Of a DNA stretch of 64,000 bases, positions 11,846 to 63,055 are shown in pieces; positions within the stretch are counted from its first letter, which is position 1, and each line of letters begins with the position of its first letter. The translations under genes and the position numbers were made by a program. The stretch is from Leucoraja ocellata (lineage: Eukaryota). The notes beneath the pieces were generated by a model that saw only the letters and a program-made list of their open reading frames with translations, searched no databases and was not told the DNA's origin. The stretch is taken from the NCBI GenBank assembly GCA_036785375.1, contig JAWMAR010001182.1, positions 62,001 through 126,000 on the forward strand. The letters run 5' to 3'.

Positions 11846-14220
11846 ATGAGTTGGAAGTGGCACTTGGAAGTTGAATATTACTATTATCCAATTCTGGCAG
11901 CAATCGGAGTACCCGGTAGGTGAAGGGAAAGCAGTAAGAGGGACTGAGACGTGAGATGATATGTTGATAAAAACAATGTTAAAGGTAAAGTGTAAATAGT
12001 GTGCGAAACACGGGAATGCTAGACTGCATTCTTCAGGTTAGGGCGGTATTAACTAGAAAATGTTTGTTTAAGAAATTACTGCAGTTGCTGGAGAAATCGA
12101 ATCTAGACAAAAATGCTGGAGAATTAGACAGCGGGTGAAGCGGCATCTATGAAGCGAAGGAATAGGTGACGTTTCGGGTCGAGACTGATCAGTCTGAAAA
12201 AGGGTCTCGACCCGAAACGTCACCTATTCCTTTATTAATCTACATGATCGTTGGTCGTTCATTGGATCTGGCACAGGTTAATTCTCTTCAGATTCAGGTT
12301 TAGGTGCATTGTTGTCATGTCTCTCCGGGAGCTGCAAAAAGCTTTGGTTTGCAAGAAATCCAAATTAGATCAAATAATATTAAATAACAGTACAAACAAT
12401 TCAATCTCAGTAACAGGTAGTGTAAGAGGTGAAATCGGAGTGCAGAGCGTAGTTCAAGTTTGGGAGCGCACTGCAGCGTATCACTTCCACAAAGCCCAAT
12501 GTCCGCAAGGGGATAGAGGTGAAACGGCAATGCCCTGGCATATGGAAGAGCGGCTCAGAAGCCTGACAACAGAGGGGAAAGAGCTGTTCTGGAGTCTGGT
12601 GGAGCGAGCTTTAAGCCTTCTCCATTTTCTGCCCGACGGAGCAGGAAGTAGAAGGAATGCGCGGGGTGAGACATGTCTCCGTTTCCAAAAGATTGTGAAG
12701 TGCAAACGCAGTCAACAGTGCGGAGTCCATTACGTGATATGGACCCGGCGTCTTCCAGAACCCTGTGCAATTTATTCTTTATGTGGCATAGATGGCCCCA
12801 CAACACGCTTTGTGCGGCACCGTTGTTGAGTATTATTGTGGAAGGGTGTTACCACTAATTCTCGCGGTTTATTCTTTAGGAAGTTGAGTATCCATTCGCA
12901 AGCTGGTGTGTTGAGCGCTGGGCTCTGGAGTTTATCAATGGGTTTGGATGGGAGTAGTGTTGAAGGCAAATTCTCCAGCGGAGAAATGGGAATCTTACTT
13001 TCGACTCCTTTGTTGCCCGGCTGTTCCCGGGAAGGGTTTAGGTCCAGGACGATGTCGTCTGATGCGGACAAGTTGCTGCAATATGCAGTCTGCGGTGCAT
13101 CACGGGTGGCTGGGAGACAGCTCACGCTACCTGCGTAGACCGCTGCTAACTAATCCGCACAGCTCCTTGGCAAGCACACAGGTTTGCATGTGGGCAGTTT
13201 TTTTCGAACAAATAAGCAAAGTTTGACCCCCGCCTCCAAATTTGCATCGCGTGTCCATTACATGTAACGGGTTTCCTCTTTTCTACATCCCCAGTGAACT
13301 TGCTGGCGATTGTGATCCTGTCGCGCAGAAATTGTGGTCTCTCCAAATGCACCACTCGGTACCTGGTGGCCATGGCGACTGTGGACCTCTCGGTGATCGT
13401 CTGCGAAGTGATATTACATCGGATTGCCGACCTTTACTGGGTGAACACATTCCTCTTAAACAATACTGTGTGCAGGTCCATTATGTTCCTCGCTCCCGCG
13501 GCCGTTGCCTGTTCTGTTTGGCTCACGGTCGCTTTCACATTTGATCGCTTTGTGGCCATTTCCACTCAGAATCTGAGAACCAGATACTGCACTGAGAGAA
13601 CCGCGGTGGTGGTTATAGTGACCCTAACTGCGTTCTTCTGTTTACAGAACGTCCCCTGGCCGTTTGCGTACATTTATTATCTCAGGGATCAGCAGGGTAC
13701 ACTGTGGGGTTGCCGAGTACGATATCAGTTTTATAGCCTATCCTTGTGGATAACATTTTCCTGGACTCAACAGCTGCTAGTCCCAGTCATTCCATTTTGT
13801 TTGATTATGATGATGAACGTGCTCACAGTCAGACGCATTTTAGTGGCCAGTCGTGTCCGCAGAAAACTCCGCGATCTCAGTGGTGAGGACCCCGAGATCG
13901 CAAACCGCAGACGGTCCGTAATTTTACTCCTTGCAATCTCCAGCAGTTTTATGCTGCTCTGGGGCACAAATGTAGTATATTTCGTTTTCTATCGAATTAC
14001 GAATGCATTTATGTTCAGGGGGTTGATGAACCGATTTGCAACATTTGAACAAACTGGAATACTGCTACAACTGTTGAACACCTGCACAAACACGCTCATT
14101 TACACCGTGACCCAGAGGAGGTTCAGAGAGCAGCTGTTCCAGGTACTCATATACCCCTTCACCCTAACTGTATGTTTAATAAAATCGAGAAACCGGTGTA
14201 AAATAACATTACATTACTAA
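11846..14220 (+). CDS. Class A (rhodopsin-like) GPCR, GPR139/GPR142-like, copy 1; exon1 11846-11915, exon2 13295-14220; 331 aa
   Basis: Exon1 reads MSWKWHLEVEYYYYPILAAIGVP+G followed by a GTAGGT donor. A pyrimidine-rich CCCAG acceptor at 13294 gives the phase-1 join G|TG (Val) into NLLAIVILS. Seven hydrophobic segments, TM2 AMATVD, TM3 TFDRFVAI, Cys at the top of TM3 and in ECL2 (WGC), TM7 NTLIY. Family call from memory of similar proteins. Confidence 0.9.
12157..12232 (+). repeat. Penelope-like-element-derived hairpin in GPCR1 intron (hammerhead core mutated: CTGAAAA)
   Basis: 29-bp inverted arms AAGGAATAGGTGACGTTTCGGGTCGAGAC / GTCTCGACCCGAAACGTCACCTATTCCTT. Confidence 0.7.
12290..13140 (-). 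mobile_element. Decayed Rex1/Babar-like LINE remnant in the GPCR intron (shared by all four copies)
   Basis: Minus-strand reading PSGRKWRRLKARSTRLQNSSFPSVVRLL resembles the Rex1 C-terminus also seen at 46445-46879; TCAGA-type tail at ~12290. Confidence 0.5.
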
Positions 14221-14637
14221 TCCCACCGTGAGTCAGTGCAGAAACTAGGTAATGAAGGAGTTTTGTCTGAAAGCTTTCCGCATCAATTTTCAAAAACATA
14301 GCTGAGAAATATATTCTGAACGCGTCCCCTGCACTGGAATGTACATTTGGCCATCTATTTAACATGCAACACGGGCGCGTTGTTCAAAGTGCCCAGTGGG
14401 AAGGGCGGCCACATGGAACGAGTGCTATGTTGTACTGGAGCAGACCTCCAATGAATCCGGAATTGAGCCTCGCCGTTAACTGTCTCCACATTCCTTTGAA
14501 TCCAGCGGCAACGTCTCCAGCACGCAATGAAAACAGACATAGAGTTATGGTCCTAAACATTGCATGCTCCATTACTCTACAATTCTTTGAGCCGTTCCAT
14601 GGTTACGTATGTAAATGCCCGGTGCACCAATGTGTTT

Positions 14638-14643
14638 AATAAA
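14638..14643 (+). terminator. Putative GPCR polyadenylation signal AATAAA (also 27629, 43490, 59896-59901 on -)
   Basis: AATAAA ~420-435 nt after the stop codon in all four copies. Confidence 0.4.
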
Positions 14644-22724: not shown

Positions 22725-24829
22725 AAGAGGCTGCAGGGTGACTTGGATAGGCTGGGTGAGTGGGAAAATGCATGGCAGATGCAATATAATGTGTATACAT
22801 GTGAGGTTATCCACTTTGGTGGCAAACCCAAGAAAGTAGACTATTGTCTGAATGGTAGCCGATTAGGAAAAGGGGAGATGCAACGAGACCTGGGTGTCAT
22901 GGTACACCAGTCATTTAAAGTAGACATGCAGGTGCAGCAGGCAGTGAAGAAAGCGAATGGTATGTTAGCATTCATAGAAAAATGATTTGAGTATAGGAGA
23001 CAACACCAGGAGTATTGCGTACAGTTTGTTCTCCAAATCTGAGGAAAGACATTCTTACCATAGAGGGAGTACAGAGAAGGTTCACCAGACTGACTCCTGG
23101 GATGTCAGGACTTTCATATGAAGAACGACTTGATAGACTCGGCTTGTACTCGCTACATTTTAGAAGATTGAGGGGGGGTCTTATAGAAACTTACAAAATT
23201 CTTAAGGGGTTGGACAGGCTAGATGCAGGAAGATTGTCCCCGTTGTTGGGGAAGTCCAGGACAAGGGGTGACAGTTGAACGATAAAGGGGAATTATTTTT
23301 GGTCCCAGATGAGAAAAACATTTTTTTCACACAGAGAGTGGTGAATCTCTGGAACCCTCTGCCACAGAAGGTAGTTGAGGCCAGTTCATTGGCTATATTT
23401 AAGAGGGGGTTTGATATGGCCCTTGTGGGTAAAGGGATCAGGGGGTATGGAAAAAAAGCAGGAACAGGATACTGAGTTGGATGATCAGCCATGATCATAT
23501 TGAATGGCGGTCAGCCTCGAAGGGCCGAATGGCCTACTCCTGCAACTATTTTTATGTTTCTATTTGTCTATGTTAATTGGCTTGATAAAAAAAAAGTTAA
23601 ATTATCCAACTTGGCGATATGCAGAGTACTGCCCTGCCTACTTCAAAATTCAGAAAGTTCAGTAGGTAATACTTGAACTGATCATCTTCTCATATTTTAA
23701 CCCTCCATAACTCATCATGGTTTTGTTCGCTGCAGAGGGAAAACAATTCTGCATTATCCAGTCCATCTCACAATTCACACTGCCAAATACTAGCATCATT
23801 CGTGTGAGGAGAGTTGCATCCTCCCTAGTTTAAATTGATCCGTAATTCATTATTTCGAAAAATAATATCCCTGTTCCTGTGCTGTACTGCATTGTGAAGT
23901 TCCTTTTCCTGCGAATTCCTTAGGTCGAGTGCAGCAAACATGACACTTCTTTCTTAGGTCAAATCTTTCTTCAGAATGATCTATCCCCAAACATTTACAG
24001 CCGATCAGACCCATTCAATTCGTTCTATCATCTTGCACATCAACATTCGTGATATCTCAAAAGGATTAATGCATTGAGAATATTTCGCCCTAATATCTGG
24101 AATAACACCAACAGCTGTTCACCTCTGTGTTTTATGATTTAACACATTCATTTAAAGATAGCCTGTTGATCAATAATATTTCTAGCCGCTGTTTATTTCC
24201 AGTCAGTTGTCACATTACACATTATATTCGCCTATTCTTTACTTCATGAAGTGGCAACAGTTGAAATACATTAATGCTGCTGTTGTAGCTGAATTGTATA
24301 CGATGTCGTCTAGAAGGTTCCCTGTGGTTTACATCATTTAGACCCTGCCAAAATATGATTATCTTTCCTTTTGAAAGGCAGCTCCACGGATATTGCAAGA
24401 TGAAATTATTAATGGGTGCATGTTAAATGAAGGGAACGGTTTCTGGAAAATGCATTGCAAATGCGACAAGTAATATACTGCATTACATCGCAGCATGTGT
24501 GGATAAATGCTACAATACACGAATTTTGCTGCATATGTGTGCCATGCGTTAAAATTAAAAAATAGAATGATGACTCGTATTTTACAGTTCCTTTGTTCTG
24601 TTGGTGCTCAGCTGGTGCCTGAGTAGTGAGCGGTCGCATAATGAGTTTGATCGCGTTGCATCACCTGGGAGCAAACTGTTTGTTCAACGGTCCACAATAA
24701 ATGTCCGCGGGGAGGTGAACGCACGCAGTCCTTAAGTTTTTCAAAGAATATAAATATAGCGGTGTTTGACTTCTCACTTTGACTCCTATAAGTTTTGCAC
24801 TGCATAACTGCGGACGGCTTGAAGGAAAA

Positions 24830-27196
24830 ATGAGTTGGAAGTGGCACTTGGAAGTGGAATATTATTATTATCCAATTCTGGCAGCAATCGGAGTACCCGG
24901 TAGGTGAAGGGAACGCTGTAAGTGGGACTGAGATGTGGGATGATGTGTTGATAAAGACAATGTCAAAGGTAAAGTGTAAATAGTGTGCGAAACACGGGAA
25001 TGCTAGACTGCATTCTTCAGGTTAGGGCGGTATTTGAAAATGTTTGTTTAAGAAATTACTGCAGTTGCTGGAGATAATCGAATCTAGACAAGAATGCTGG
25101 AGAATTATACAGCGGGTGAAGCGGCATCTATGAAGCGAAGGAATAGGTGACGTTTCGGGTCGAGGCTGATCAGTCTGAAGAAGGGTCTGGATCCGAAACG
25201 TTACCTATTCCTTTGTTAAGCTACTTGATCGTTGGTCGTACATTGGATCTGGCACATGTTAATTCTCTTCAGGTTTAGGTGCATTGTTGCCATGTCTCTC
25301 CGGGAGCTGCAAAAAGCTTTGGTTTGCAAGAAATCCAAATTAGATCAAATAATATTAAATAACAGTACAAACAATTCAATCTCAGTAACAGGTAGTGTAA
25401 GAGGTGAAATCGGAGTGCAGAGCGTAGTTCAAGTTTGGGAGCGCACTGCAGCGTATCACTTCCACAAAGCCCAATGTCCGCAAGGGGATAGAGGTGAAAC
25501 GGCAATGCCCTGGCATATGGAAGAGCGGCTCAGAAGCCTGACAACAGATGGGAAAGAGCTGTTCTGGAGTCTGGTGGAGCGAGCTTTAAGCCTTCTCCAT
25601 TTTCTGCCCGACGGAGCAGGAAGTAGAAGGAATGCGCGGGGTGAGACATGTCTCCGTTTCCAAAAGATTGTGAAGTGCAAACGCAGTCAACAGTGCGGAG
25701 TCCATTACGTGATATGGACCCGGCGTCTTCCAGAACCCTGTGCAATTTATTCTTTATGGGGCATAGATGGCCCTACAACAAGCTTTGTGCGGCACCGTTG
25801 TTGAGAATTATTGTGGAAGGGTGTTACCACTAATTCTATCGGTTTATTATTTAGGAAGTTGAGTATCCATTCGCAAGCTGGTGCACAGATCGCTGGGCTG
25901 TGGAGTTTATCAATGGGTTTGGATGGGAGTAGTGTTGAAGGCAAGTTCTCCAGCGGAGAAATGGGAATCTTACTTTCGACTCCTTTGTTGCCCGGCTGTT
26001 CCCGGGAAGGGTTTAGGTCCAGGACGATGGCGTCTGATGCGGACATGTTGCTGCAATATGCAGTCTGCGGTGCAACAAGTGTGGCTGGGAGACAGCTCAC
26101 GCTACCTGCGTAGACCGCTGCTAACTAATCCGCACAACTCCTTGGCAAGCACACAGGTTTGCATGTGGGCCAGTTGTTTTCGAACAAATAAGCAAAGCGT
26201 GCCTTAAATTGATCCCCGCCTCCAAATTAGCATCGTGTTTCCCTTACATGTAACTACAGTTTCCTCTTTTCTACACCCGCAGTGAACTTGCTGGCAATTG
26301 TGATCCTGTCGCGCAGAAATTGTGGTCTCTCCAAATGCACCACTCGGTACCTGGTGGCCATGGCAACTGTGGACCTCTCGGTGATCGTCTGCGAAGTGAT
26401 ATTACATCGGATTGCCGACCTTTACTGGGGGCACTCATTCCTCTTCCGCAATACTGTGTGCAGGTCCATTATGTTCCTCGCTCCCGCGGCCGTTGCCTGT
26501 TCTGTTTGGTTCACGGTCGCTTTCACATTTGATCGCTTTGTGGCCATTTCCACTCAGAATCTGAGAACCAGATACTGCACTGAGAGAAGCGCGCTGGTGG
26601 TTATAGTGACCCTAACTGCGTTCTTCTGTTTACTGAACGTCCCCTGGCCGTTTGCGTACATTTATTATTTCAGGGATCGTCAGGGTACACTGTGGGGTTG
26701 CCAAATACTATATCACTTCTACAGCCTATCCTTGTGGATAGCATTTTCCTGGACTCAACAGCTGCTGGTCCCAGTCATTCCATTTTGTTTGATTATGCTG
26801 ATGAACGTACTCACAATCAGACGCATTTTATTGGCCAGTCGTGTCCGCAGGAAACTCCGCGATCTCAGTAGTGAGGACCCCGAGATCGCAAACCGCAGAC
26901 GGTCCGTAATTTTACTCCTTGCAATCTCCAGCAGTTTTATGCTGCTCTGGGGCACAAACGTGGCATATTTCGTATCCTATCGATGTACGATTGCATTTAA
27001 GTACAGGGGGTTGAAGAACCCATTTGCAACATTTGAACAAACTGGAATTCTGCTACAATTGTTGAACACCTGCACAAACACGCTCATTTACACCGTGACC
27101 CAGAGGAGGTTCAGAGAGCATCTGCTCCAGGTACTCATGTACCCCTTCACCCTAACTGTACGTTTAATAAAATCGAGAAATCCTAGTGTAAAATAA
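24830..27196 (+). CDS. GPR139/GPR142-like GPCR copy 2; exon1 24830-24899, exon2 26283-27196; 327 aa
   Basis: Same 70-nt exon1, GT donor at 24900, CGCAG acceptor, open 7TM frame with DRF and NTLIY motifs. Confidence 0.9.
25138..25213 (+). repeat. Penelope-derived hairpin in GPCR2 intron (degenerate hammerhead-like core)
   Basis: CTGAAGAAGGGTCTGGATCCGAAACGTTA within the same inverted repeat. Confidence 0.6.
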
Positions 27197-29170
27197 CATT
27201 ACATTACTGATCCCTCCGTGAGGCAGTGCAAACACTAGGTAATGAAGGAGTTTTCTCTGAAACCATTGCGCATCAATTTTCAAAGAAATAGTTGAGAAAT
27301 AGAATCCGAACGCGTCCCCTGCACTGGAAAGCACATTTGGCCATCTATTTAACATGCGACACGGGCGCGTTGTTCAAAGTGCCCAGTGGGGAGGGCGGCC
27401 ATGTTTAACCGAGTTCTATGTTGTACTGGATCAGACCTCCAATGATTCCGGATTTGAGTCTCGCCGTTAACTGTTTGCACCTTCCTTTGAATCGAGGGGC
27501 AACGTCTCCAGTGCGCAATGAAAACAGACATAGAATTCTAGTCCTAAACATTGCATGCTCCATTACTCTACAATTCTTTGAGACGTCCCATGGTTACGTA
27601 TGTAAATGCCCAGTGCACAAATGTGTTTAATAAAATTCTTGCTGCAACATTTACGTTAATGAAAGTTCGATTTTATATTTGTTTCGCGCACTGAATGTAA
27701 TGCCTCGTTGCTTCTTCCAGAGGCTTTCGGTTTTCAGTACAATTAGTAACTCTGCATCAGATGCAGCCAAAGGTACTGGGTGCTATTCATACAAGTTGGC
27801 ATTACTAACTATATTTTTAATGCAAACGGTGTGTAACAAGGGAGTGTACAGTAGAGGGCGGTCAAGTGAGTAAGTTCACCTGTGTGGTAAAGATATGCTG
27901 AATCTATTTTCATTAATGTCCCACCTCCATTGATGCAGCGTCGACGCTGGAGCTCTGCCTATTTTAGAATCGAGGGAATGCTCAGAGAGTCGGATTTATC
28001 TCCTCCTGCAGGGCAAGGAAATGTGAGAAATCCATTAATTTATTTTCCCCACCGATGGCGGCTGAGATCTGTATAGCTCCAAATTTGAGTTGAGCACTCT
28101 CTCCCCAAATCCTCCTCTCCCGACGCGGTAACAATTACATTTTTACATATTCCGATTGACGTTTTTCCCCTCGAGTCCGAGACACATCCACTGAACATTT
28201 TATGCTTTATTTCTTGACTTATTACTGATTAAAAGTAAGTAAGAAGTTTAAAAACGTCAAAAGAATTTGACTTTAAATCGACCAGCTGCTTAGTGGCACG
28301 GCTAGCAGTGAACAGCGTCCCTGAAGATTTCATCCTATATTTCACGTTATTCGCGATTAAAACATTAAAATTGTCAACTTTCACAAGATTTTTACATATT
28401 CTGATCCACATTTATCCCCTCCAGGCAGAGAGCACCTTCGCTGAACATGAGATGCTTTGTTTTTCGGCATTACTGATTAAAGTTTAAAAAAATCAAAATA
28501 CTTTGAAAATTAAAACGGCTAGCTGCCACTGATGACGTCACGATGTCTCTGCGAGCAGTGATCATCTTCACTTACGTTCGGGAACGGCTTCTGTTGGAGG
28601 ACCACGCCTCCTGTGGGGGCTAGGGGTAGGGAACGGGTGCGTTGGGGGAGCAGACCTCATCGAAGCCTCTCATAACTTTACACACCTCAACCAGGTCTTC
28701 CTGCAATCTCCGACATTCCAGAGGGAAATAATCCAAATATGACCAATCTCTCCCTGCACCGCTAATCCAGCCACCATTCCGGTAAATCAGCAACTGCGGC
28801 TCTAAAACACGCTGATCTTAATAAATGTGTCCATTTTGCTGAATTGGCAAAGACATTCACTAACTGCTTTGCTACTGGTCACCAATTAGTACAGCGTGCT
28901 AGTTTAGTTAGTTTACATTAGTTCTTGATATGCGTGGACAGGGTAGACTGTCAGAACATTGATTTTCCCAACGGTCGGTTCTAACCGGGATGGCTGGACG
29001 AATGGAGCGACTGAGCTTGTATACACTGGAGTTTAGAAGGATGAGAGGGCATCTTATTGAAACATATAATGTTATTGAGTGTTTGGACACGCTAGAGGCA
29101 GGAAAATTGTTCCCGATGTTGGGGGAGCCCAGAACCAGGGCCACTGTTTAAGAATAAGGGGTAAGCCATT

Positions 29171-30235
29171 TAACCATATAACCATATAACCATATAACAA
29201 TTACAGCACGGAAACAGGCCATCTCGACCCGTCTAGTCCGTGCCGAACACGTATGCTGCCCTAGTCCCATATACCTGCGTTCAGACCATAACCCTCCATT
29301 CCTTTCCCGTCCCTATAACTATCCAATTTATTTTTAAATGATAAAAACGAACCTGCCTCCACCACCTTCACTGGAAGCTCATTCCACAGTGCCACCACTC
29401 TCTGAGTAAAGAAGTCCCCCCTCGTGTTACCCCTAAACTTCCGTCCCTTAATTCTCAAGTCATGTCCCCTTGTTTGAATCTTCCCTACTCTCAGTGGAAA
29501 AAGCTTATCCACGTCAACTCTCTCTATCCCTCTCATCATTTAAAGACCTCTATCAAGACCCCCCTTAACCTTCTGCGCTCCAAAGAAAAAAGCCCTAACA
29601 CTGTTCAACCTTTCTCTGTAACTTAGTTGCTGAAACCCAGGCAACATTCTATTAAATCTCCTCCGTACTCTCACTATTTTGTTGACATCCTTCCTATAAG
29701 CTTAAGGGACAGAAGTTTAGGGGTAATATGAGGGGGGACTTCTTTACGCAGAGAGTGGTGGCGGTGTGGAATGAGCTCCCAGTGGAAGTGGTGGAGGCAG
29801 GTTCATTGGTATCATTTAAAAATAAATTGGATAGGCATATGGATGAGAAGGGAATGGAGGGTTATGGTACGAGTGCAGGCAGGTGGGACTAAGGGGAAAA
29901 ATATTTGTTCGGCATGGACTTGTAGGGCCGAGATGGCCTGTTTCCGTGCTGTAATTGTTATATGGTTATATGGTTATATATATATATATATTAGGCGACC
30001 AAAATTGTACACCATACTCCAGAATTGGCCTCACCACGCCTTGTACAATTTTAACATTACATCCCAACTTCTATACTCAATGCTCTGATTTCTAAAAGCC
30101 AGCACACCAAAAGCTTTCTTTACCACCCTATCTACATGAGATTCCACTTTCAGGGAACTGTTCACAGTTATTCCCAGATCCCTCTGTTCACCTGCATTCT
30201 TCAATTCCCTACCATTTACCATGTACGTCCTATTT
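29171..30235 (-). mobile_element. CR1 family B 3' fragment, interrupted by an oppositely oriented family B 3' end (~29699-29980, +)
   Basis: (CCATATAA)n tail at 29173-29197; the paralogous copy at 44905-45680 is uninterrupted. Confidence 0.85.
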
Positions 30236-30590
30236 AGATGGAGATGCGGAAACAATTGTTCACACAGTGTAGTGAGTATGTGGTATTCTCTGCCTCAGAG
30301 GGCGGTGGGTATCGGTTCTCTGGATACTGTCAAGAGAGAGCTGGAGAGGGTTCTTAAAAATAGCGGAGTCAGGGGATATGATGAGAATGCAGGAACTGGG
30401 TACTGATTGGGGATGATCAGCCATGATCACATTGAATGGCGGTGTTGGCTCGAAGGGCCGAATGGACTACTGCTGCACCTATTGTCTATTGATAGGAAGC
30501 TAATCAGCTATTTTCCATCTCCGTCTTATCTGCAGTATCTTCTCTCTCCGCTTCCAGACCCATAAACTAATTTATTGCACAAACACATGT

Positions 30591-31363
30591 CGATAGATAG
30601 AGATAGATAGATATATGTTACTTTATTAATCCCCTTATTCAGGGGAAATTCAGATGTCCTTGCACACTAATAAAAATACAACATAGCATTCAAGAAGGTT
30701 AACATTAAAACTTAAAAACATCCCCCCACAATGATTCCCACTGGGTGAAGGCACAAAGTCCAGTCCCCATCCTCTTGTCCACCCAGAGTCGGGCCTATTG
30801 AGGCCTCCACAGTCGCCGTTACGGGGCCCGATGTTCCCGGCCGTTCTCGCCGGGTGTTGGTACTCCGGCGTCGGGAGAACCTTCAGCGGCTTGGGGTACC
30901 AGGAACGGCCGCCCTCCTACCGGAGACCACGGCTTCCAAGCCAACAGACCGAGCCGAACGGAGCCCCACACACTGGCGATCTCGGCGAGAGATCCCAGGC
31001 TCCGGTATGTAAAGTTCAGCGCCGCAGCTGGCCGGTCCACAGAACCGCGGCTGCACGATGTTAGTATCGGCGGTCGCTCCGCAACAGCGCGCCACCGCCG
31101 CGCCGCCGCCGAAGCCGAGGTTCTGGCCAGGTCCCCTCAGGAAACGTCGCTCCAGGACCCGCTGGTAGGCCGCGAGGACTGGTCGAATGTGCTGCTCGGA
31201 GGAAGGCAGCCTCTCCGACAAGGTAGGGACATGAAAAGCAGTTTCCCCCTCCCCCCCCACCGCCCCCCACACATAAAAAGATTAGCCCCCCCCCCAACTA
31301 AACACTTTAGCGTACTAAAAATAATTTAAAAAAAAGAAGTGAAAGAAAACGGACAGCTGCAGG
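30591..31363 (-). mobile_element. GC-rich non-autonomous retroelement with (TATC)n tail and 6-bp TSD ACATGT
   Basis: ACATGT at 30585-30590 and 31364-31369; empty site CACATGTGTTAC in paralogous cassettes (~16995, ~46020, ~57975). Confidence 0.75.
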
Positions 31364-31579
31364 ACATGTGTTACTTTTTAAGCTAGGGGGCTCGACTGTG
31401 GCAAGTAAATTGACAGGCACAATCCTCGGCAACAAGCAGGATCGTTTCGTTGAACACCTCCGCTCAATTCGCCTCCAACGTGTCCAATCCCTTAATAATC
31501 TATTATGTTTAAAAATATACCCTCTCATCCTACTAAATTCCAGTGTATACACGCCCAGCCACTCCATTATATTCACATA

Positions 31580-32360
31580 TTCAGATTCAGATTCAGATTC
31601 AGATTCAACTTTAATTGTCATTGTCAGTGTACAGTACAGAGACAACGAAATGCAGTTAGCATCTCCCTGGAAGAGCAACATAGAATACGATTCCAATAAA
31701 TAAATCTATTTACATGCATACAGTCATAGTGTTTTTCCTGTGGGAGGAGTGTCCGGGCGGGAGTGGTGGGTGGGGGGGTGGGGTGGTGATTGGCAGTCAC
31801 CGAGGTACATGGTTGAGTAGTGTGAGGGACCGGTGATGCGTTGGTCAATGTTCATCACCCTCTGCAGTGCTTTCCGGTCGGAGACAGAGCAGTTGCCATA
31901 CCATACTGTGATACAGTTGGTAAGGATGCTCTCGATGGTGCAGCGGTAGAAGTTCACCAGAATCTGAGGAGACAGGTGGAATTTCTTCATTCTGCTCAGG
32001 AAGAAGAGACGCCGGTGAGCCTTCTTGACCAGAGTTGAGGTATTGTGGGTCCAAGAGAGGTCATCGGAGATGGTTGACCCCCAGAAACCTGAAGCTGGAA
32101 ACACGTTCCATCTCCGTCCCGTTGATGTGGATGGGGGTGTGCGTGCCGCCCCTAGACTTCCTGAAATCTGCAATGAGCTCCTTGGTCTTCTTGGAGTTAA
32201 GTATCTAAGTAGTTGTCAGCGCACCATGCTGGTAGGAGCTGGACCTCCTCCCTATAGGCCGACTCATCGTTGTTGCTGATGAGGCCAATCACCGTTGTAT
32301 CATCTGCATACTTAATGATGCTGTTCAGTCGTAGGTGAATCTGAATCTGAATCTGAATCA
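31580..32360 (-). mobile_element. Rex1/Babar-like LINE fragment
   Basis: ORFs IIKYADDTTVIGLI and VKKAHRRLFFL..NFYRCTIESILTNCITVWYG; (ATCTGA)n tail. Confidence 0.8.
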
Positions 32361-34988: not shown

Positions 34989-35026
34989 TGTTTTTGTAAG
35001 GGGCTTAACTTGTTTCCATCACTGTG
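34989..35026 (-). promoter_or_regulatory. Recombination signal sequence (23-class RSS, 22-nt spacer) of V1
   Basis: CACAGTG + ATGGAAACAAGTTAAGCCCCTT (22 nt) + ACAAAAACA (1 mismatch to consensus ACAAAAACC). Confidence 0.95.
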
Positions 35027-43057: not shown

Positions 43058-44904
43058 CATTACATTACTGATCCCTCCGTGAGTCAGTGCAAACACTAGG
43101 TAATGAAGGAGTTTTCTCTGAAATCATTCCGCATCAATTTTCAAATAAATAGTTGAGAAATAGAATCCGAACGCGTCGCCTGCACTGGAAAGCACATTTG
43201 GCCATCTATTTAACATGCGACACGGGCGCGTTGTTCAAAGTGCCCAGTGGGGAGGGCGGCCATGTTTAACCGAGTTCTATGTTGTACTGGAGCAGACCTC
43301 CAATGATTCGGGAATTGAGTCTCGCCGTTAACTGTTTCCACCTTCCTTTGAATCGAGCGGCAACGTCTCCAGCGCGCAATGAAAACAGACATAGAATTAT
43401 GGTCCTAAACATTGCATGCTCCATTACTCTACAATTCTTTGAGACGTCCCATGGTTACGTATGTAAATGCCCAGTGCACAAATGTGTTTAATAAAATTCT
43501 TGCTGCAACATTTACGTTAATGAAAGTGCGATTTTATATTTGTTTCTCGCACTGAATGTAAAGCCTCGTTGCTTCTTCCAGAGGCTTTCGGTTTTCAGTA
43601 CAATTAGTAACTCTGCACCAGATGCAGCCAAAGGTACTGGGTGCTATTCATACAAGTTGGCATTACTAACTATATTTTTAATGCAAGCAGTGTGCAATAA
43701 GCGAGTGTCCAGTAGAGGGCGGTAAAGTGAGTAAGTTCACCTGTGTGGTAAAGATATGCTGAATCTATTTACATTAATGTCCCACCTCCATTGATGCAGC
43801 GCCGATGCTGGAGCTCTGCCTATTTTAGATTCGAGGGAATGCTCAGATAGTCGGATTTATCTCCTCCTGCAGGGCAAGGAAATGTGGGAAATCCATTAAT
43901 TTATTTTCCCCACCGATGGCGGCTGAGATCTGTATAGCTCCAATTTTGAGTTGAGCACTCTCTCCCCAAATCTTCCTCTTCCGACGCGGTAACATTTACA
44001 TTTTTACATATTCCGATTGACGTTTTTCCCCTCGAGTCCGAGACACCTTCACTGAACATTTTATGCTTTATTTCTTGACTTATTACTGATTAAAAGTAAG
44101 TAAGAAGTTTAAAAACGGCAAAAGAATTTGACTTTAAATCGACCAGCTGCTTAATGGCACGGCTAGCAGTGAACAGCGTCCCTGAAGATTTCATCCTATA
44201 TTTCACGTTATTCGCGATTAAAACATTAAAATTGTCAACTTTCACAATATTGTTTACATATTCTGACCCACATTTATCCCCTCCAGGCAGAGAGCACCTT
44301 CGCTGAACATGTGATGCTTTATTTTTCGGCATTACTGATTAAGGTTTTTAAAAATCAAATTACTGTGAAAATTAAAACGGCTAGCTGCAACTGATGACGT
44401 CACGATGGCTCGGCTAGCAGTGATCAGCTTCACATTCCAGAGGGAAAGAATCCAAGTATGACCAATCTCTCCCTGCACCACTAATCCAGCCGCCATTCCG
44501 ATAAATGAGCAACTGCGGCTCTAAAACACGCTGTTCTTATTAAATGTGTCTATCTTGCTGAATTGGCAAATACATTCACTAATTGCTTTGCTACTGGTCA
44601 CCAATTAGTACAGCGTGCTAGTTTAGTTAGTTTACATTAGTTCTTGATATGCGTGGATAGGGTAGACTGTCAGAAATTTGATTTTCCCAACGGTCAGTTC
44701 TAACCGGGATGGCTGGACTGGCATATGTTGAACGAGTGGAGCGACTGAGCTTGTATACACTGGAGTTTAGAAGGATGAGAGGGCATCTTATTGAAACATA
44801 TAATGTTATTGAGTGTTTGGACACGCTAGAGGCAGGAAAATTGTTCCAGATGTTGGGGGAGCCCAGAACCAGGGTCACTGTTTAAGAATAAGGTGTAAGC
44901 CATT

Positions 44905-45680
44905 TAACCATATAACCATATAACCATATAACAATTACAGCACGGAAACAGGCCATCTCGACCCGTCTAGTCCGTGCCGAACACGTATGCTGCCCTAGTC
45001 CCATATACCTGCGCTCAGACCATAACCCTCCATTCCTTTCCCGTCCATATAACTATCCAAGTTATTTTTAAATGATAAAAACGAACCTGCCTCCACCACC
45101 TTCACTGGAAGCTCATTCCACACTGCCACCACTCTCTGAGTAAAGAAGTCCCCCCTCATGTTACCCCTAAACTTCTGTCCCTTAATTCTCAAGTCATATC
45201 CCCTTGTTTGAATCGTCCCTACTCTCAGTGGAAAAAGCTTATCCACGTCAACTCTGTCTATCCCTCTCATCATTTTAAAGACATCTATCAAGACCCCCCT
45301 TAACCTTCTGCGCTCCAAAGAATAAAGCCCTAACTTGTTCAACCTTTCTCTGTAACTAAGTTGCTGAAACCCAGGCGACATTCTAGTAAATCACCTCTGT
45401 ACTCCCTCTATTTTGTTGACATCCTTCTTATAATTAGGCGACAAAAATTGTACACCATACTCCAGAATTGGCCTCACCAATGCCTTGTACAATTTTAACA
45501 TTACATCCCAACTTCTATACTCAATGCTCTGATTTCTAAAGGCCAGCACACCAAAAGCTCTCTTCACCACCCTATCTACATGAGATTCCACTTTCAGGAA
45601 ACTGTGCACAGTTATTCCCAGATCCCCCTGTTCACCTGCATTCTTCAATTCCCTACCATTTACCTTGTACGTCCTATTTA
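44905..45680 (-). mobile_element. CR1 family B 3' fragment
   Basis: ORFs 44995-45381 and 45391-45699; (CCATATAA)n tail. Confidence 0.9.
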
Positions 45681-46235
45681 GATGTAGATGCGGAAACAAA
45701 TATTCACACCGTGTGGTGAGTATGTGGTATTCTCTGCCTCAGGGTGTCGGTTCTCTGGACACTGTCAAGAGAGAGCTGGAGAGGGTTCTTAAAAATATCG
45801 GAGTCAGGGGATATGAGGAGAATGCAGGAACGGGGTACTGATTGGGGATGATCAGCCATGATCACATTGAATGGCGGTGTTGGCTCGAAGGGCCGAATGG
45901 GCTACTGCTGCACATATTGTATATTCAAAGGAAGCTAATCAGCTATATTCCATCTCCGTCCTGTCTGCAGTATCTCCTCTCTCTGCTTCCAGGCCCATAA
46001 ACTAATTTATTGCACAAACACATGTGTTACTTTTTAAGCTAGGGGGGCTCGACTGTGGCAAGTAAATTAACAGGCACAATCCTCGGCAACGTGCAGGATC
46101 GTTTCGTTGAACACCTCCGCTCAATTCGCCTCCAACGCGTCCAATCCCTTAATAATCAATTATGTTTCAAAAATATTCCCTCTCATCCTACTAAATTCCA
46201 ATGTATACAAGCCCAGCCGCTCCATTATATTCACA

Positions 46236-47205
46236 TATTCAGATTCAGATTCAGATTTTGATTCAACTTTAATTGTCATTGTCAGTGTACAGTACAGAGA
46301 CAACGAAATGCAGTTAGCATCTCACTGGAAGAGCGACATAGAATAGTATTCCAATAAATAAATCTATTTACATACATACAGTCATGGTGTTTTTCCTGTG
46401 CGAAGAGTGTCCGGGCGGAAGGAAGGGGTGGGGGTGATTGGCAGTCACCGAGGTACATTGTTGAGTAGTGTGACAGCCGCAGGGAAGAAGCTGTTCCTGG
46501 ACCTGCTTTTCCGGCAACGGAGAGACCTGTAGCGCATCCCGGATGGTATGAGGGTAAACAGTCCATGGTTGGGGTGAGAGCAGTCCTTGGCGATGCTGAG
46601 CGCCCTTCGCAGACAACGCTTGCTTTGGACAGACTCAATGGAGGGGAGCGATGACCCGGTGATGCGTTGGGCAATTTTCACCACCCTCTGCAGTGCTTTC
46701 CGGTCGGAGACAGAGCAGTTGCCATACCATACTGTGATACAGTTGGTAAGGATGCTCTCGATGGTGCAGCGGTAGAAGTTCACCAGGATCTGAGGAGACA
46801 GATGGACCTTTTTCAGCTCCTCAGGAAGAAGAGGCGCTGGTGAGCCTTCTTGACCTGAGTTGAGGTATTGTGGGTCCAAGAGAGGTAATCGGAGATGTTG
46901 ACCCCCAGGAACCTGAAGCTGGAAACACGTTTCATCTCCGTCCCGTTGATGTGGATGGGGGTGTGCGTGCCGCCCCTAGATTTCCTGAAATCTACAATGA
47001 GCTCATTGGTCTTCTTGAAGTTAAGTATTCAGGTTGTTGTCAGCGCACCGTGCTGCTAGGAGCTGGACCTCCTCCCTATAGGCCGACTCATCGTTGTTGC
47101 TGATGAGGCCAATCACCTGTATCATCTGCATACTTGATGATGGTGTTAGTGCCATGTACAGGTGTGCAGTCATAGGTGAATCTGAATCTGAATCAGAATC
47201 AGAAT
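46236..47205 (-). mobile_element. Rex1/Babar-like LINE fragment (paralog of 31580-32360)
   Basis: ORF 46445-46879 NFYRCTIESILTNC..PSGMRYRSL..NSFFPAAV. Confidence 0.8.
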
Positions 47206-49913
47206 GAACATATTTGCTCCTATACACAATTCCACTTGTTATGCAGGCCAGCGTGCAATTAGCTTTCTTCACTGTCTGCTGTACCTGCATGATTACTTTC
47301 AGTGAGTGATGTACAAGGACTCCAATTGATACCCATCACCTTCTCAAGAGCAAATGTTTCCTTCCCGTTCCAGTGAAATATTTCCCCTCTCGCCATGAAA
47401 CCTAATTCCTCTGGTTCTTGATTCTCCAACTCTGAGTAAAGTACAAGATACAAGATACATTTATTTGTCACATGTACCAGTTGGTACAGTGGAATGTGTG
47501 GTCACCATATACCCATACAATAAAATAAAGAACACAACATACGATAGAGTCCAACATAAAACATTCCCACCCAGCATAATCAAAGTTTCCCACTGTGATT
47601 CACGTGTGATTCACGTTGTCCAATCGATAATGATTTCATACACTCAGCCTCCTCCGCCCAAGGAATATAGGCTGAAGATTTCAAAGGTCCGCCGTGGACA
47701 CAGGCCCTTCTTCCTACATAATCTGCGCTTACCAACGATCACCCCATACAGTAGCACTGTACTACAAGCTGACAAGTTACAATTTGCAGATATTAAAAAA
47801 TACGCATTTCGAGTCAGGGAAGAATCCGGAACACCCGGAGAAAACCCAGGCAGTCATCAGAATCATAATCGGAATCAGAATGCGGTTTATTGTCATTATT
47901 TATTTAGCGAATGCAAAGTCCTTTAGCCAAGCGGTTGCCTCTTGATCTGCTGTATGAAGGGTGACAAGTCCTCCTTTGAGTCTTTGTTGAGGACATGCTT
48001 CAATGACGTGTTGCATTGTTTGCTGCTCACCACATGCACATCGTGAGGTTGGACTGCCATTTAAACATAGGTTCAAACGAAATTACGTTCCTGCAGTCAT
48101 AACAACAACAACAAAAACACAATTATCTCAATTGCACACAAACATACATCACAGTGAATCTCCAAACAACTCCTCACTGTGATGGGAGGCAAAAGTATTA
48201 TCTCTTCCCTTTTCTGTTCTTTATTCTTCTTCCGCAGTCTGGCAGTCAAACTGCTGCATCGAGCTGATCGAGGCTTTTGATGTTGGAGCCCCCGGCGGGC
48301 GATGGTAAGTCCCGCGGCCGCGTCGGGCGATAGAGAGTCCTGCTACGGGTCGATTTAAACCCCTCGATTCGAGCGGGAGATGTTACCGTTGCGCAAGCTC
48401 CGAAAAGCGGTCGCCCACCAGGGACCTGCGAGCTCCCGATGTTACCGTCCACAGGGTCTGCGGCCGGAGCCTCAGCCGCCCCGAAGTCGGGTCGCAGCCG
48501 CGCGTCGCCACAGCGCTCCGCGCTCCGACGTCGGCCCGCTCCGCGATGGTGAGTCCGCAGGGTGTGCGACTGGAGCCCCAGGTCGATTCCGATTGGACCC
48601 CGCCGGCTGCACGATGTTAGTCCCCAACGACAACGGAGACTCGACAGGGAAAATGTCGAGTTCGAGTCCCCGGACAGGGAAGAGATTTAAAAGCCCCCCC
48701 CCCCCCCCCCCCCCCCACACACACACCTCCCCCCGCAAACGTCCTCCCTCCACACACACAAACACAGCTAATAAACCAAAACATACAACTAACAAGTCAA
48801 AAAGAAATAAAAGACAGACCGTAGGGGCCTCTGCCGCGAGGCGCCGCCATTTTGTCCAAACGGGAGAATTTACTAAATCGTTACTGTCAGCACCGTACTC
48901 AGGATCTAAACGGGTCTCTGACAGTGTAATGCCCCTGTCCCACTCAGGAATTAGTTTACCTTCCGGTGGGTCTTCAGTGTAAGGGAGCAACTCTCCAGCT
49001 ACGACACTATGCCGCCTAATTTATTCCTACACTGCTCAAACTATCTTTTTTGCGAAGTCACTCGAGGGAGTACAGTAGAGCTATGATCTAGTGAAGGTGT
49101 TGTCATGTTGCTGTTGTGGAGGAATTCCCAGACTATAGCGATGCAGAGAAGTAATTCAGTACCGGCTCATGGAGCAAAAACAGTAATTACTGCATTAAGG
49201 TATTTGCACATTTGTGCAGTCACCCATTGGGAAAGGCGCCAGACCTATTCAAAGTGTTTAATTTTACTTACCTCACGGGCATATCCATCAGGGTATTTAT
49301 TTTTAGCAGTTGCTGTAGCTATGCATCTGGTGTCTAGTGATATATCCAGCGACACAGATCTGGATTACTCAGCAAGGCCCAATGGTGAACTACCCATCTG
49401 CATTACTGATAATCCGCCATTTGCGGTAAATAGTTTGGTTTATTGACTTCCTATTCTTCCCGCGTCCCGGACGATTTTTCTGCAAAAAGTGAATGCCAAT
49501 GACCACCTGAAATTAGAAAGTCCGTCAGGGTGTTGGTGAAGTGGAATTGGTTAACGTAATTGTGACAATTCCGGGCCAGCCAATCCTCCATCCAGTGACA
49601 CCATAGTTTTTCCTGATTAAAACAGAACATTCTGCAGTTATTAACCAGGTTCTCCAGGACTGAGGAGAATGAAACAGAACACACGTTTCAGATCTCTGGT
49701 CACATGTTCTATCCCGCTGTCATAAGAGCTCTTGTAATTATCTGCAGCTAGCGGCTAATGTTATGGAAACGGATTCCGGAGAAGCAGCTCACAGTTGGAA
49801 CAATAAACCACCAGGGCACCTGCACACAATGAAAGCAAACCGACAACTGAGAGAGAACAGGAAAGCAGGCACATCCTACCGCATGAGCGGAGCAGAGAGC
49901 AAGACAAAGGCGA

Positions 49914-49951
49914 TGTTTTTGTAAGGGGCTTAACTTGTTTGCATCACTGTG
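49914..49951 (-). promoter_or_regulatory. RSS (heptamer-22-nonamer) of V2
   Basis: CACAGTG + ATGCAAACAAGTTAAGCCCCTT + ACAAAAACA. Confidence 0.93.
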
Positions 49952-50421
49952 CGCCACAGTGCGCAGTAATAGACTGCAGAGTCGCTGAGATCCAGCCCTG
50001 AGATACTCAAGCTGGTGACTTAGTCGCGGTATTGAGCTCAATAGAGAAACGAGTGTCAGCGTATTGGGCCTTATCTTCATTGTTGCCGGTGTCTCTCGAC
50101 ATAGTAAACTCGGGCTGCATGCCTGGATATTGTCGGTACCAGAATAAAGCATATCCAGTCCATGTGGTATCATAGTTACAGGTTAAAGTCACCGTTTCTC
50201 CTTTTGTCTTCGTCACCGAGGGCAGTGGCTGTGTGACAGATTCTCCGTGAATCGTGACTGTAAAATAAATATATTGAGATAGTAACAGACACCGGAGTAC
50301 CATAAAATTGCACTTCTCAAGCCAAAATCTCACTGAGGAGGGCGAGGGGAACTGAACATATTGATCCAGAATTACCTGTCAGAAACGCTCCCCACACAAC
50401 ACAGATGCCGAGGAAACGCAT
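49952..50421 (-). pseudogene. TCR alpha/delta-type V segment (V2) with a 1-nt deletion in FR3; leader 50421-50376, V exon 50257-49952
   Basis: Leader MRFLGICVVWGAFLT with intact splice sites. The + strand reads gctggtgacttagt (~50011-50024) versus gctggtgaacttagt in V1, so the frame shifts before the second Cys. Could be a sequencing error. Confidence 0.8.
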
Positions 50422-51044
50422 TTTGCCCGTTCACTATGTACTAGCTGAGTTCGAAACTTGAAGAGACAAAACTGGATCGTGTCTGCTGGTCTCCGGATGT
50501 TCGCTGTCACTGCCATGTGCCCCCAGTGATGGAGTCAGAGATATGGGGTGGGCAGCGGGGTATTAGCCAATTGAAATACACGTAGCCGGAATCCAGCTTT
50601 CCCCCCGAGATTATTCGCATCCGCTTGAATAAACCGTGATTGAGGAAGGCATATTTGTTCTTGTAACCGGTGGTGAAGGTGCAAAGCCTGAGATTGTTAA
50701 GCGAAACAATAATAAGGTGCATATTTACAAATGGAATAGATCGGGTAAATTCACAGAGTCTCTTGGCCAGAATAGGTGGATCGAGAAACAGAGAACATAG
50801 ATTCAAAGTGAGTGGGGAGTAGATTTAATAGAGACCTGAAGGGTAACTTTTTCATACAAAGGGGCGGCGCTAGGAGCGAGCTGCCGGAGGTAGTAGTTAA
50901 GGCAGGCACAATCGCAGAGTTTATGAAGAGCGTTGACATATACATGGATAGAACGGATGTTGAGGATATGGACGAAATGCATGCAGGTAGGATTAGTGTA
51001 GATGGAACATGTTGGCTGGTGTGGGCAATTTTGGCCGAAATGTG

Positions 51045-60332: not shown

Positions 60333-63055
60333 TTAATTTACATCTGGTGTTCTCGATTTTATTAAGCTTACAGTTAGGGTGAAGGGGTACATGAGTACCT
60401 GGAGCAGATGCTCTCTGAACCTCCTCTGGGTCACGGTGTAAATGAGCGTGTTTGTGCAGGTGTTCAACAGTTGTAGCAGAATTCCAGTTTGTTCAAATGT
60501 TGGAAATGGGTTCTTCAACCCCCTGGACATAAATGCATTCGTAATTCGATATAAAACGAAATATACCACAGTTGTGCCCCAGAGCAGCAGAAAACTGCTG
60601 GAGATTGCAAGGAGTAAAATTACGGACCGTCTGCGGTTTGCGATTTCGGGGTCCTCACTACTGAGATCGCGGAGTTTCCTGCGGACACGACTGGCCACTA
60701 AAATGCGTCTGACAGTGAGCACGTTCATTAGCATAATCAAGCAAAATGGAATGACTGGGACTAGCAGCTGTTGAGTCCAGGAAAATGCTATCCACGAGGA
60801 TAGGCTATAAAAGTGATATCTTATTAGGCAGCCCCACTGTATACCCTGCTGATCCCTGACATAATAATTGTACGCAAACGGCCAGGGGACGCTCAGTAAA
60901 CAGAATAACGCAGTTAGGGTCACTATAACCACCAGCGCGGTTCTCTCGGTGCAGTATCTGGTTCTCAGATTCTGAGTGGAAATGGCCACAAAGCGATCAA
61001 ATGTGAAAGCGACCGTGAGCCAAACAGAACAGGCAACGGCCGCGGGAGCGAGGAACATAATGGACGTGCACACAGTATTGTGGAAGAGGAATGAGTGCGC
61101 CCAGTAAAGGTCAGCAATCCGTTGTAATATCACTTCGCAGACGATCACCGAGAGGTCCACAGTCGCCATGGCCACCAGGTACCGAGTGGTGCATTTGGAG
61201 AGACCACAATTTCTGCGGGACAGGATCACAATCGCCAGCAGGTTCACTGGAAAAGAGAAAACTGTCGTTACATGTAAGGGAAACACGATGCTCATTTGGA
61301 GGCGGGGGTCAAACTTGGGTACGCTTGGCTTATTTGTTCTAAAAAAACTGGCCCACATACAAACATGGGTGCGTGCTAAGCAGCTGTGCGGATTATGTAG
61401 CAGCGGTCTACGCAGGCAGCGTGAGCTGTCTCCCAGCCACAATTGTTTCACCACAGACTGCATATTGCAGCAACATGTCCGCATCAGACGCCATCGTCCT
61501 GGACCTAAACCCTTCCTGGGAACAGCCGGGCAGCAAGGAGTCGAAAGTCAGATTCCCATTCCCAACACTACTCCCATCCAACCCATTGATAAGCTCCCGA
61601 GCCTAGCGATCAGCACACCAGCTTCTAATGTTCTAATGAACGTACCTTAATCAGTGAGAAGTAGTTATAACACCCCTTCCACAATAATTCTCTACAACGG
61701 TGCCGCATAAAGACGTCTCATCCGGTTCCCGGTTCTTCCTCCCATGCACTCACGACCCCGCGGCCAAATGCGGCTGTGACTGCTCCCACAAGCTCCCAGA
61801 TGATGACAATCTCTATGTCAGTATCAACGAGGCCAAGGAGCAAGTTATCGATATCAGGAAATGCGGTGGATCACCGGTCAGCAACAACGGTGCTGAAGTG
61901 GAAGTGATTGAGGGCGTCAAGTTCCTCGTAGTTAATATTATCAACGGTGTTTGTTGGACGACCACATCGAAGGGACAGCCAGCGGCAGACCAACACCTTT
62001 ACTGAGAAGTCTGAGGAACTTTGACCTGCCTCTGATTACTCAAACTTGCTGTGCAGATTAGCATAGAACGCATACTGTTGGGTGTATCACAGCTTGTTGT
62101 GGGGACATATATGTCCTATAAAGAGTAAATTGCGCAGGGTTCTGGAAGATGCCGTCTCCTTATTACGAAATAGACTCCGCACTGTTGACTGCGTTTGCAC
62201 TTCACAATCCCTTGGAAACGGAGACACGTCTCACCCCGCTCATTCCTTCTACTCCCTGCACCCGTCGGGCAGAAGATACAGAAGGCTTAAAGCTCGCACC
62301 ATCAGACTCCAGAACCGATTCTTTCCCTCTGTTGTCAGGCTTCTGAGCCGCTCTTCCATATGCGAGGGTATTGCCGTTTCACCTCTATCCCCTTGCGGAC
62401 ATTGGGCTTTGTGGATGTGATACGCTGCAGTGCGCTCCCAAACTGGGACTACGCTCTGCACTCCGATTTCCCCTCTTACACTACCTGTTACTGAGATTGA
62501 ATTGTTTGTACTGATATTTAATAGTATTTGATCTAATTTGGATTTCTTGCAAACCAATGCTTTTTGCAGCTCCCGGAAATACATGACAACAATGCACCTA
62601 AACCTGAATCTGAAGAGAATTAACCTGTGCCAGATCCTATGAACGACGAACGATCCAATAGCTTAACAACGGAATAGGTGACGTTTCGGGTCGAGACCCT
62701 TCTTCAGACTGATCAGTCTCGACCGGAAACGTCACCTATTCCTTCGCTTCATAGATGCCGCTTCACCCGCTGTCTAATTCTCCAGCATTTTTGTCTAGCT
62801 TCGATTTCTCCAGCAACTGCAGTAATTTCTTAAACAAACATTTTCTAGTTAATACCGCCCTAACCTGAAGAATGCAGTCTAGCATTCCCGTGTTTCGCAC
62901 ACTATTTACACTTTACCTTTAACAATGTTTTTATCAACACATCATCCCACGACTCAGTCCCACTTACTGCGTTCCCTTCACCTACCGGGTACTCCGATTG
63001 TTGCCAGAATTGGATAATAATAATATTCAACTTCCAAGTGCCGCTTCCAACCCAT
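60333..63055 (-). CDS. GPR139/GPR142-like GPCR copy 4 (inverted); exon1 63055-62986, exon2 61246-60333; 327 aa
   Basis: Exon1 reads MGWKRHLEVEYYYYPILATIGVP+G|GTAGGT; TTTCCAG acceptor; intact 7TM frame. The longer ORF-track N-terminus (from 61484) is intron read-through. Confidence 0.9.
62680..62707 (-). ncRNA. Minimal hammerhead-ribozyme-like motif in GPCR4 intron
   Basis: Reverse complement reads CTGAAGAAGGGTCTCGACCCGAAACGTC, in the sense of the GPCR4 transcript; hairpin 62671-62744. Confidence 0.55.

Follow-up and report, generated by a model that had tools for sequence, protein, structure and literature searches.

The window analysed here is a stretch of 64,000 nucleotides from the skate Leucoraja ocellata (assembly GCA_036785375.1, contig JAWMAR010001182.1, positions 62,001 to 126,000 of the forward strand), and all coordinates below refer to it. 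It contains four intact two-exon genes for predicted class A G-protein coupled receptors (GPCRs), numbered here as copies 1 to 4, with copies 1–3 on the plus strand and copy 4 inverted (Table 1). In each gene a first exon of 70 nucleotides (nt), which includes MSWKWHLEVEYYYYPILAAIGVP in copies 1–3, is followed by a phase-1, GT-AG intron of 1325–1739 nt; the GTAGGT donor after this exon was revealed by aligning the repeat units and is conserved in all four copies. A TATA box, TATAAATA, lies at a constant distance 5' of the ATG in each. The spliced proteins comprise 331, 327, 327 and 327 residues and have no internal stops, and open reading frames (ORFs), splice sites and TATA box are intact in 4/4 copies. 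A preliminary description of the window had given the four frames as intact, as they indeed are, and had placed the family between 13295 and 61246; exon 2 of copy 1 (plus) begins at the former position and that of copy 4 (minus) at the latter, and exon 1 went unmentioned. A tblastn search of the window returned four exon-2 and four exon-1 matches, with no fifth copy or fragment. Pseudogenes were ruled out by the intact spliced ORFs and by an omega (dN/dS, the ratio of nonsynonymous to synonymous rates) of 0.14–0.23 in the intracellular loops under the motif definition. An assembly artefact or a set of alleles was also rejected: the flanks of copies 2 and 3, which form a tandem duplication with an exon 2 period of about 15.9 kb, are 3.8–5.8% divergent and other pairs differ at 8–10% of non-coding columns, as against the heterozygosity of 1.6% given for the little skate in the text of PMC10115646.

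All four exon 2 frames match the Pfam model 7tm_1 (PF00001) with 54.7–70.7 bits (cut-off 30.5). The class A microswitches are present as N25, D54, C83, D107-R108, C163, W246, N289 and Y293 (N1.50, D2.50, DR3.50, W6.48, N7.49-Y7.53 and the cysteine pair between transmembrane helix (TM) 3 and extracellular loop (ECL) 2), with the NPxxY motif reading NTLIY. The AlphaFold model of copy 2 exon 2 shows seven helices, a helix 8 and a hairpin in ECL2, and Foldseek aligned it to peptide GPCRs with TM-scores of about 0.7, without discriminating among them. Judged by these features, the window proteins are predicted members of the class A (rhodopsin-like) GPCRs.

Loop boundaries were set from class A landmarks and hydropathy and then checked on the same model. 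Variation among the four copies affects 24 of 51 ECL residues, as compared with 2 of 43 residues in the intracellular loops (ICLs; Fisher p = 2e-6) and 34 of 272 residues outside the ECLs (p = 1e-7). ICL1 is identical across the copies in DNA as well as in protein, a single residue varies in each of ICL2 and ICL3, and TM7 shows no amino-acid change. Of the 10 sites with three or more different residues, 7 are loop sites and a further 2 sit at the tops of helices, and the outer thirds of the helices vary at 13/61 positions versus 4/61 for the inner thirds (p = 0.034). Between copies 2 and 3 there are 30 residue differences, 15 of them in the strict loops; the figure rises to 21 once helix ends within 8 residues of a loop are counted. 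The contrast between the extracellular and intracellular sides of the four copies is real and beyond chance. The loop strings quoted in the preliminary description recur in all four copies, its account of an identical ICL1 and near-invariant ICL2, ICL3 and TM7 is borne out, and its hand count of about 21 in about 30 differences between copies 2 and 3 agrees with the broader of our two counts. The extracellular hypervariability that it claimed holds for the loops and needs two qualifications: copies 1–3 share one and the same extracellular N-terminus of 9 residues, which hence is not hypervariable, and the helices vary too, at 23 of 192 residues, which qualifies the restriction to loops. Two features are peculiar to copy 1, namely an N-glycosylation sequon in ECL1 (residue 79) and a C-terminal tail (14180–14220) that is four residues longer and reads RCKITLHY where the others have PSVK or PDVN.

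By the Nei-Gojobori method the ECLs have a dN of 0.144, against a gene-wide dS of 0.081 and an ICL dN of 0.012. A codon model written for this analysis (Goldman-Yang type, with a shared synonymous rate and fixed site classes) gave an omega of 1.9–2.35 for the ECLs on gene-wide dS, about 0.5 for helices and tails, and 0.14–0.43 for the ICLs. Neutrality of the loops (omega = 1) was rejected in 12/12 runs spanning two strict loop definitions, three trees and two codon-frequency models (one-sided p = 0.0004–0.004). Site models on two trees preferred M8 to M8a (p = 0.010–0.012) and M2a to M1a (p = 0.035–0.042). In null simulations with neutral loops on mosaic trees, the observed likelihood ratio or omega was reached in 0/82 and 0/83 replicates, with rate variation taken from the non-coding alignment and conversion that systematically spares loops lying outside the null. 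The proportion of nonsynonymous differences (pN) in the loops was 1.99 times the divergence of aligned intron (p = 0.030) and 1.39 times that of downstream sequence (p = 0.025) by resampling. CpG hypermutation as the cause of loop change was unsupported, with CpG transitions at 5 of the 32 variable ECL bases. Together these results show that the cytoplasmic face (omega about 0.2) and the helices (about 0.5) are under purifying selection, and make positive selection on the outer loops likely, though not proven.

The four copies are gene-conversion mosaics. The 72 informative sites are split 49/14/9 among the three possible trees and are clustered along the sequence (p = 5e-5), and near-identical tracts join different pairs, copies 1 and 2 differing at 1 of 400 intron columns and copies 2 and 3 at 2 of 200 columns elsewhere. 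Private changes in the intron of copy 4 number 80, versus 14–27 in the other copies. An extra, outward-facing cysteine at residue 258, on top of TM6, occurs in copies 2 and 3 (codon TGT vs ATT), within a tract that groups 1+4 against 2+3, and is also found in Amblyraja P0003/P0004. ECL2 has a high local dS and therefore looks older than the rest of the gene; it resembles a segment that homogenisation has spared or that came in from a paralog further removed, and either origin would fit selection to stay different while proving it in neither case.

The window copies belong to a chondrichthyan expansion that public databases carry as 'probable G-protein coupled receptor 139'. A protein search returned 820 matches; among the 120 listed, 118 were from named chondrichthyans (sharks, rays and chimaeras), almost all with this label, and 2 were unnamed. 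The closest named protein among the matches listed is from Leucoraja erinacea (85% identity), and the window copies group with the Leucoraja erinacea protein P0002 with an SH-aLRT (Shimodaira–Hasegawa-like approximate likelihood-ratio test) support of 100; all trees here are quick trees with this support only. Many of the public relatives (P0005, P0002, P0015, P0025 and others) have missing or implausible N-termini, probably because gene predictors miss the short first exon. Counting distinct exon-2 cores in 20 chosen clusters (the 10 nearest the window and 10 many-membered ones) plus the listed matches, we found 100 among 107 fetched proteins in the sevengill shark Heptranchias, 54 among 55 in Pristiophorus and 30 among 30 in Heterodontus, figures that are lower bounds as to sampling and may include alleles or haplotigs; 4 records without names were excluded from the paralog counts. 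Clustered intact paralogs, as looked for in a sensor repertoire, are thus present both as the four genes in 64 kb and as the many cores of these three sharks. In a tree of 90 rows the window's subfamily forms species-specific radiations. In 11 of 12 shark paralog sets the ECLs have diverged more than the ICLs, and in 10 of 12 more than the TMs; for 25 Heptranchias paralogs of the window's subfamily the values are 0.165 (ECL), 0.007 (ICL) and 0.020 (TM). The disulfide cysteines are invariant in an alignment of 15 sequences.

A profile search with 150 matches, 10 of them named, led to two non-chondrichthyan relatives, which served as controls. The top non-chondrichthyan among the 10 named matches is a 'probable GPR139' gene of amphibians and sturgeon (P0325 type, e.g. 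XP_069092602.1; 227 bits). As in the expansion, a DPE-RRRS motif precedes TM6 and both cysteines are present; unlike the expansion, the gene forms one cluster per species among the matches listed, and it has about 26–27% identity to copy 2. A search with it gave no amniote or teleost match among the matches listed. A quick tree of 62 rows, which is provisionally rooted at its midpoint and contains neither GPR139 nor GPR142, places the expansion (SH-aLRT 93) together with this gene, apart from the second relative, a coelacanth-type orphan (P0335 type, GPR139/142-related; 203 bits) of the wider clade. In 18 frog orthologues of the first gene the outer loops are more conserved than the inner ones, the reverse of the expansion (ECL 0.123, with 0.05 in ECL3; ICL 0.269; TM 0.143; ECL/ICL 0.46), and the coelacanth-type gene likewise differs from the expansion, with an ECL/ICL of 0.68–1.87 in 7 sets. 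Eight named orthologue sets span ECL/ICL ratios of 0.60–1.87, as against 10.7, 16.2 and 2.8 in three paralog sets. Since orthologue sets lack it, the excess of ECL over ICL divergence is a property of the expanded paralogs and not of the fold. Sharks carry their own orthologues of the coelacanth-type gene (P0384, P0387 and P0391), which rules out that the expansion is its orthologue. This gene is possibly one of the GPR210A/B subtypes, described in the text of PMC6504862 as additional GPR139/142 subtypes of coelacanth, gar and fishes, a text in which sharks are unmentioned as far as covered. Two of its orthologues, P0387 and P0485, are annotated as TMEM183A isoforms, which hints at linkage to TMEM183A.

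The preliminary description had set the window copies beside GPR139, a comparison that proved loose. By profile scores and tree, the genes would form a separate GPR139/142-related subtype. Among solved structures the family profile matches GPR139 best (70 bits, E = 1.4e-18), and GPR139 is also the top PDB match of the amphibian gene; by sequence it appears to be the closest characterised relative. Orthology was rejected on three grounds: copy 2 alone did not match GPR139 at E 0.001, the profile score is far from the 227 bits of the amphibian gene, and the pocket residues are replaced. The agonist pocket residues E108, F109, H187, R244 and N271 (E3.32, F3.33, H5.43, R6.51 and N7.38), as given in the text of PMC8807744, correspond to A90, P91, Q182, N or T249 and I279 in the window proteins when hand-mapped through the profile alignment, with only W6.48 kept. 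In that alignment GPR139 lacks the Cys3.25 and ECL2 cysteine, with its longer hairpin, of the window proteins, whose TM3–ECL2 pair and hairpin resemble those of peptide receptors. According to the text of PMC7318219, GPR139 has two exons, as do the window genes, and 70% human-zebrafish conservation, a strong conservation unlike that of the window copies; an 'Orphan 139-like' group is listed as unclear in the part of PMC5207463 that treats it.

Beyond the receptors, the window's other scanned ORFs (n = 5) match RVT_1 (3) or the ALKBH8_N model (2), and appear to be remnants of retrotransposons. The reverse-transcriptase ORFs (PF00078) of 529 residues at 21053–22642 (plus) and 548 residues at 51328–52974 (minus) presumably belong to CR1-type long interspersed nuclear elements (LINEs), a type we assign from the character of the sequence. 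A LINE copy at 5797–7551 is 96.6% identical to that at 51328–52974, which suggests recent activity, and repeats of this kind could provide starting points for the unequal crossing-over behind the receptor array. The introns contain no long ORF of a credible Pfam family. That of copy 1 has a perfect 29-nt inverted repeat with an 18-nt spacer (12157–12232), with counterparts in the introns of copies 2–4, which is probably a small transposon-derived element; an insertion of about 376 nt is found solely in the intron of copy 4 (62087–61713, minus), beside which copy 3 has lost about 67 nt. A relic of the receptor unit's upstream region, with no coding exon nearby, lies at 37762–38194 (66–69% identical to 11110–11521) and is possibly a decayed older copy or a repeat.

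Table 1. Receptor genes, their extracellular loops and associated features in the window (pS, proportion of synonymous differences; pLDDT, predicted local distance difference test)
Feature	Position	Strand	Remarks
TATA box, copy 1	11765..11772	+	81 nt upstream of ATG
TATA boxes, copies 2, 3, 4	24749, 40668, 63136	copy 4 minus	offset as in copy 1
Copy 1 exon 1	11846..11915	+	70 nt; 9-residue N-terminus and first half of TM1
Copy 1 intron	11916..13294	+	1379 nt, GT-AG
Copy 1 exon 2	13295..14220	+	remainder of TM1 to stop; PF00001 E 1.4e-14; protein 331 residues
Copy 1 ECL1, residues 70-80	13432..13464	+	pN 0.148, pS 0; bounds agree with AlphaFold helices
ECL1, copies 2, 3, 4	26420-26452, 42281-42313, 61109-61077	copy 4 minus	
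Copy 1 ECL2, residues 148-173	13666..13743	+	pN 0.126, pS 0.168; beta-hairpin with Cys163, strands in model
ECL2, copies 2, 3, 4	26654-26731, 42515-42592, 60875-60798	copy 4 minus	
Copy 1 ECL3, residues 259-272	13999..14040	+	pN 0.127, pS 0
ECL3, copies 2, 3, 4	26987-27028, 42848-42889, 60542-60501	copy 4 minus	
Copy 2 exon 1	24830..24899	+	
Copy 2 exon 2	26283..27196	+	spliced protein 327 residues; AlphaFold mean pLDDT 85.4
Copy 3 exon 1	40749..40818	+	
Copy 3 exon 2	42144..43057	+	spliced protein 327 residues
Copy 4 exon 2, inverted	60333..61246	-	spliced protein 327 residues
Copy 4 exon 1	62986..63055	-	beyond the span first described
Tandem duplication with copies 2 and 3	23668..51039	+	23668-36128 matches 39640-51039

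Given this body of sequence evidence, we lean towards reading the locus as a tandem array of functional orphan class A GPCRs of peptide type, from a cartilaginous-fish family growing by recurrent local duplication, the loops of which have been diversified by selection, working as a sensor repertoire; as to whether its use is innate-immune or chemosensory, the data favour neither. Receptor copies would be made by unequal crossing-over, and homogenised and shuffled by gene conversion, while selection would favour and preserve new variants of the lid formed by ECL1, ECL2 and ECL3, the deep pocket and the G-protein face staying fixed. Each copy may then recognise a different variant of a diverse class of peptide or protein ligands, and the ligands selected by the variable lid would then act through a pocket and a G protein that all copies have in common, and hence through one pathway, for which coupling via Gq is a guess by analogy with GPR139, a receptor that is activated by L-Trp and L-Phe. 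With the preliminary description, we infer that the loops would carry ligand specificity and the cytoplasmic face a fixed G-protein coupling.

A number of points weigh against this interpretation. The window was itself selected for a striking pattern, and dN/dS and the codon models rest on four DNA sequences. Broader loops that take in the N-terminus and helix ends give a lower omega of 1.5–1.8 (p = 0.006–0.03, 6/6 runs), the excess of loop pN over the upstream flanks is 1.44-fold (p = 0.055), and conversion, which the earlier account of selection had left unconsidered and which the clustered site patterns reveal, can depress gene-wide dS. With loop-local dS the three loops together have an omega of 1.5–1.75, which is not significant (p = 0.10–0.17), and ECL2 alone has 0.7–0.9, its local dS being about threefold; ECL1 and ECL3 together give p = 0.0014, with no synonymous differences and a pN of 0.13–0.15, in a subset that was chosen post hoc and has about 16 synonymous sites. 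An ECL/TM ratio of 1.4–3.9 is seen in the 8 orthologue sets and hence is generic, variable loop positions show no significant coincidence between radiations (p ≥ 0.06 in 12/12 sets), and a mostly invariant deep pocket fits escape from a binder as well as it fits new ligands. The diversifying selection claimed at the outset accordingly stands on the gene-wide omega, the site models and the simulations, and falls short of significance in the joint local test; comparing loop dN with loop dS, the check proposed with that claim, spoke for it in ECL1 with ECL3 and against it in ECL2. A combination of relaxed constraint and gene conversion, in which the loops drift neutrally (omega about 1) and conversion, by homogenising the intron and the remainder of the gene, lowers gene-wide dS and thereby inflates omega, is an unlikely account of the whole. 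The conversion that it needs is evident, ECL2 is high in dS as well as dN, the joint local-rate test is not significant, and far-upstream windows are 12–16% divergent, near the loop pN of 0.13. It sits poorly, however, with the changes in ECL1 and ECL3, all of which are nonsynonymous, with copies 2 and 3, in which loop pN is 0.133 as against 0.038–0.058 across 6.6 kb of flank, and with the failure of all 165 mosaic nulls to reach the observed value, although those nulls contained no conversion that systematically spares loops. Furthermore, it would be hard for three separate patches of 33–78 bp to escape conversion in several lineages without selection.

The constancy of the pocket bears on an explanation that we rate as less probable still, by which the copies share one conserved endogenous ligand and the loops change to evade a docking pathogen protein, as pathogens are known to dock on the loops of some chemokine receptors. 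Only 5 of 29 generic pocket positions vary among the four copies, as assigned by generic numbering rather than by measurement on the model, and on the same numbering 4 of 28 non-loop pocket positions vary versus 24 of 51 loop positions (p = 0.004); a sequon confined to ECL1 of copy 1 would also suit such evasion. Against it, escape would by itself call for no dozens of intact paralogs, and pocket-level residues, e.g. at positions 65, 69, 87 and 276, do differ between the species-level radiations. The radiations are species-specific and the fold matches peptide receptors, both of which would also be expected if the receptors diversified together with endogenous peptides of an expanding family, acting as signals of a reproductive or social kind. 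Invertebrate receptors of the FMRFamide and sex-peptide types fall within the wider clade, and ESM Atlas neighbours of the family include FMRFamide receptor-like and Srw-bearing invertebrate clusters. This we regard as the most improbable of the alternatives: the window's long ORFs (receptor copies and retrotransposon remnants) offer no candidate peptide gene, and we know of no expanded peptide family of such a kind in sharks.

A sensor repertoire of this sort would have known counterparts. Formyl peptide receptors, MRGPRs, TAARs, V1R/ORA and odorant receptors are expanded GPCR repertoires with positive selection on ligand-facing positions, a feature that the window family would share if its loop signal holds. 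What they have in common with it is an arrangement in tandem clusters, birth and death of genes by lineage, and conversion. They differ from it in ancestry, and in the window family the variation lies on the loops and not in the pocket. Loop-focused diversification in an expanded GPCR cluster is a type of pattern already known, and the notable part is the family itself. In the literature searched, with subscription papers outside its coverage, we found no published description of this family or its expression; the main texts of PMC11979771, PMC8455134 and PMC10115646 contain no GPR139 terms, nor do 12 of the 24 supplements of PMC8455134.

We put forward, as a tentative possibility suggested by sequence comparison, that the GPR139/142-related receptors of cartilaginous fishes, numbering from tens to more than 100, make up an undescribed repertoire. 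It would derive from a gene that is single-copy and loop-conserved in amphibians, and would have positively selected ECLs and a role as lineage-specific chemosensory or innate-immune sensors. The whale shark genome paper states, in the portions covered, a relative paucity of GPCRs, odorant receptors among them, in cartilaginous fishes (PMC8455134); the presence of at least 100 distinct members in one shark, behind an automatic 'probable GPR139' label, qualifies that statement. Near-identical paralogs that differ mainly in three loops amount to natural chimeras for deorphanising both the family and its single-copy amphibian relative. If the receptors do constitute a sensor repertoire, they could account for the sampling of chemical or microbial diversity by sharks and rays.

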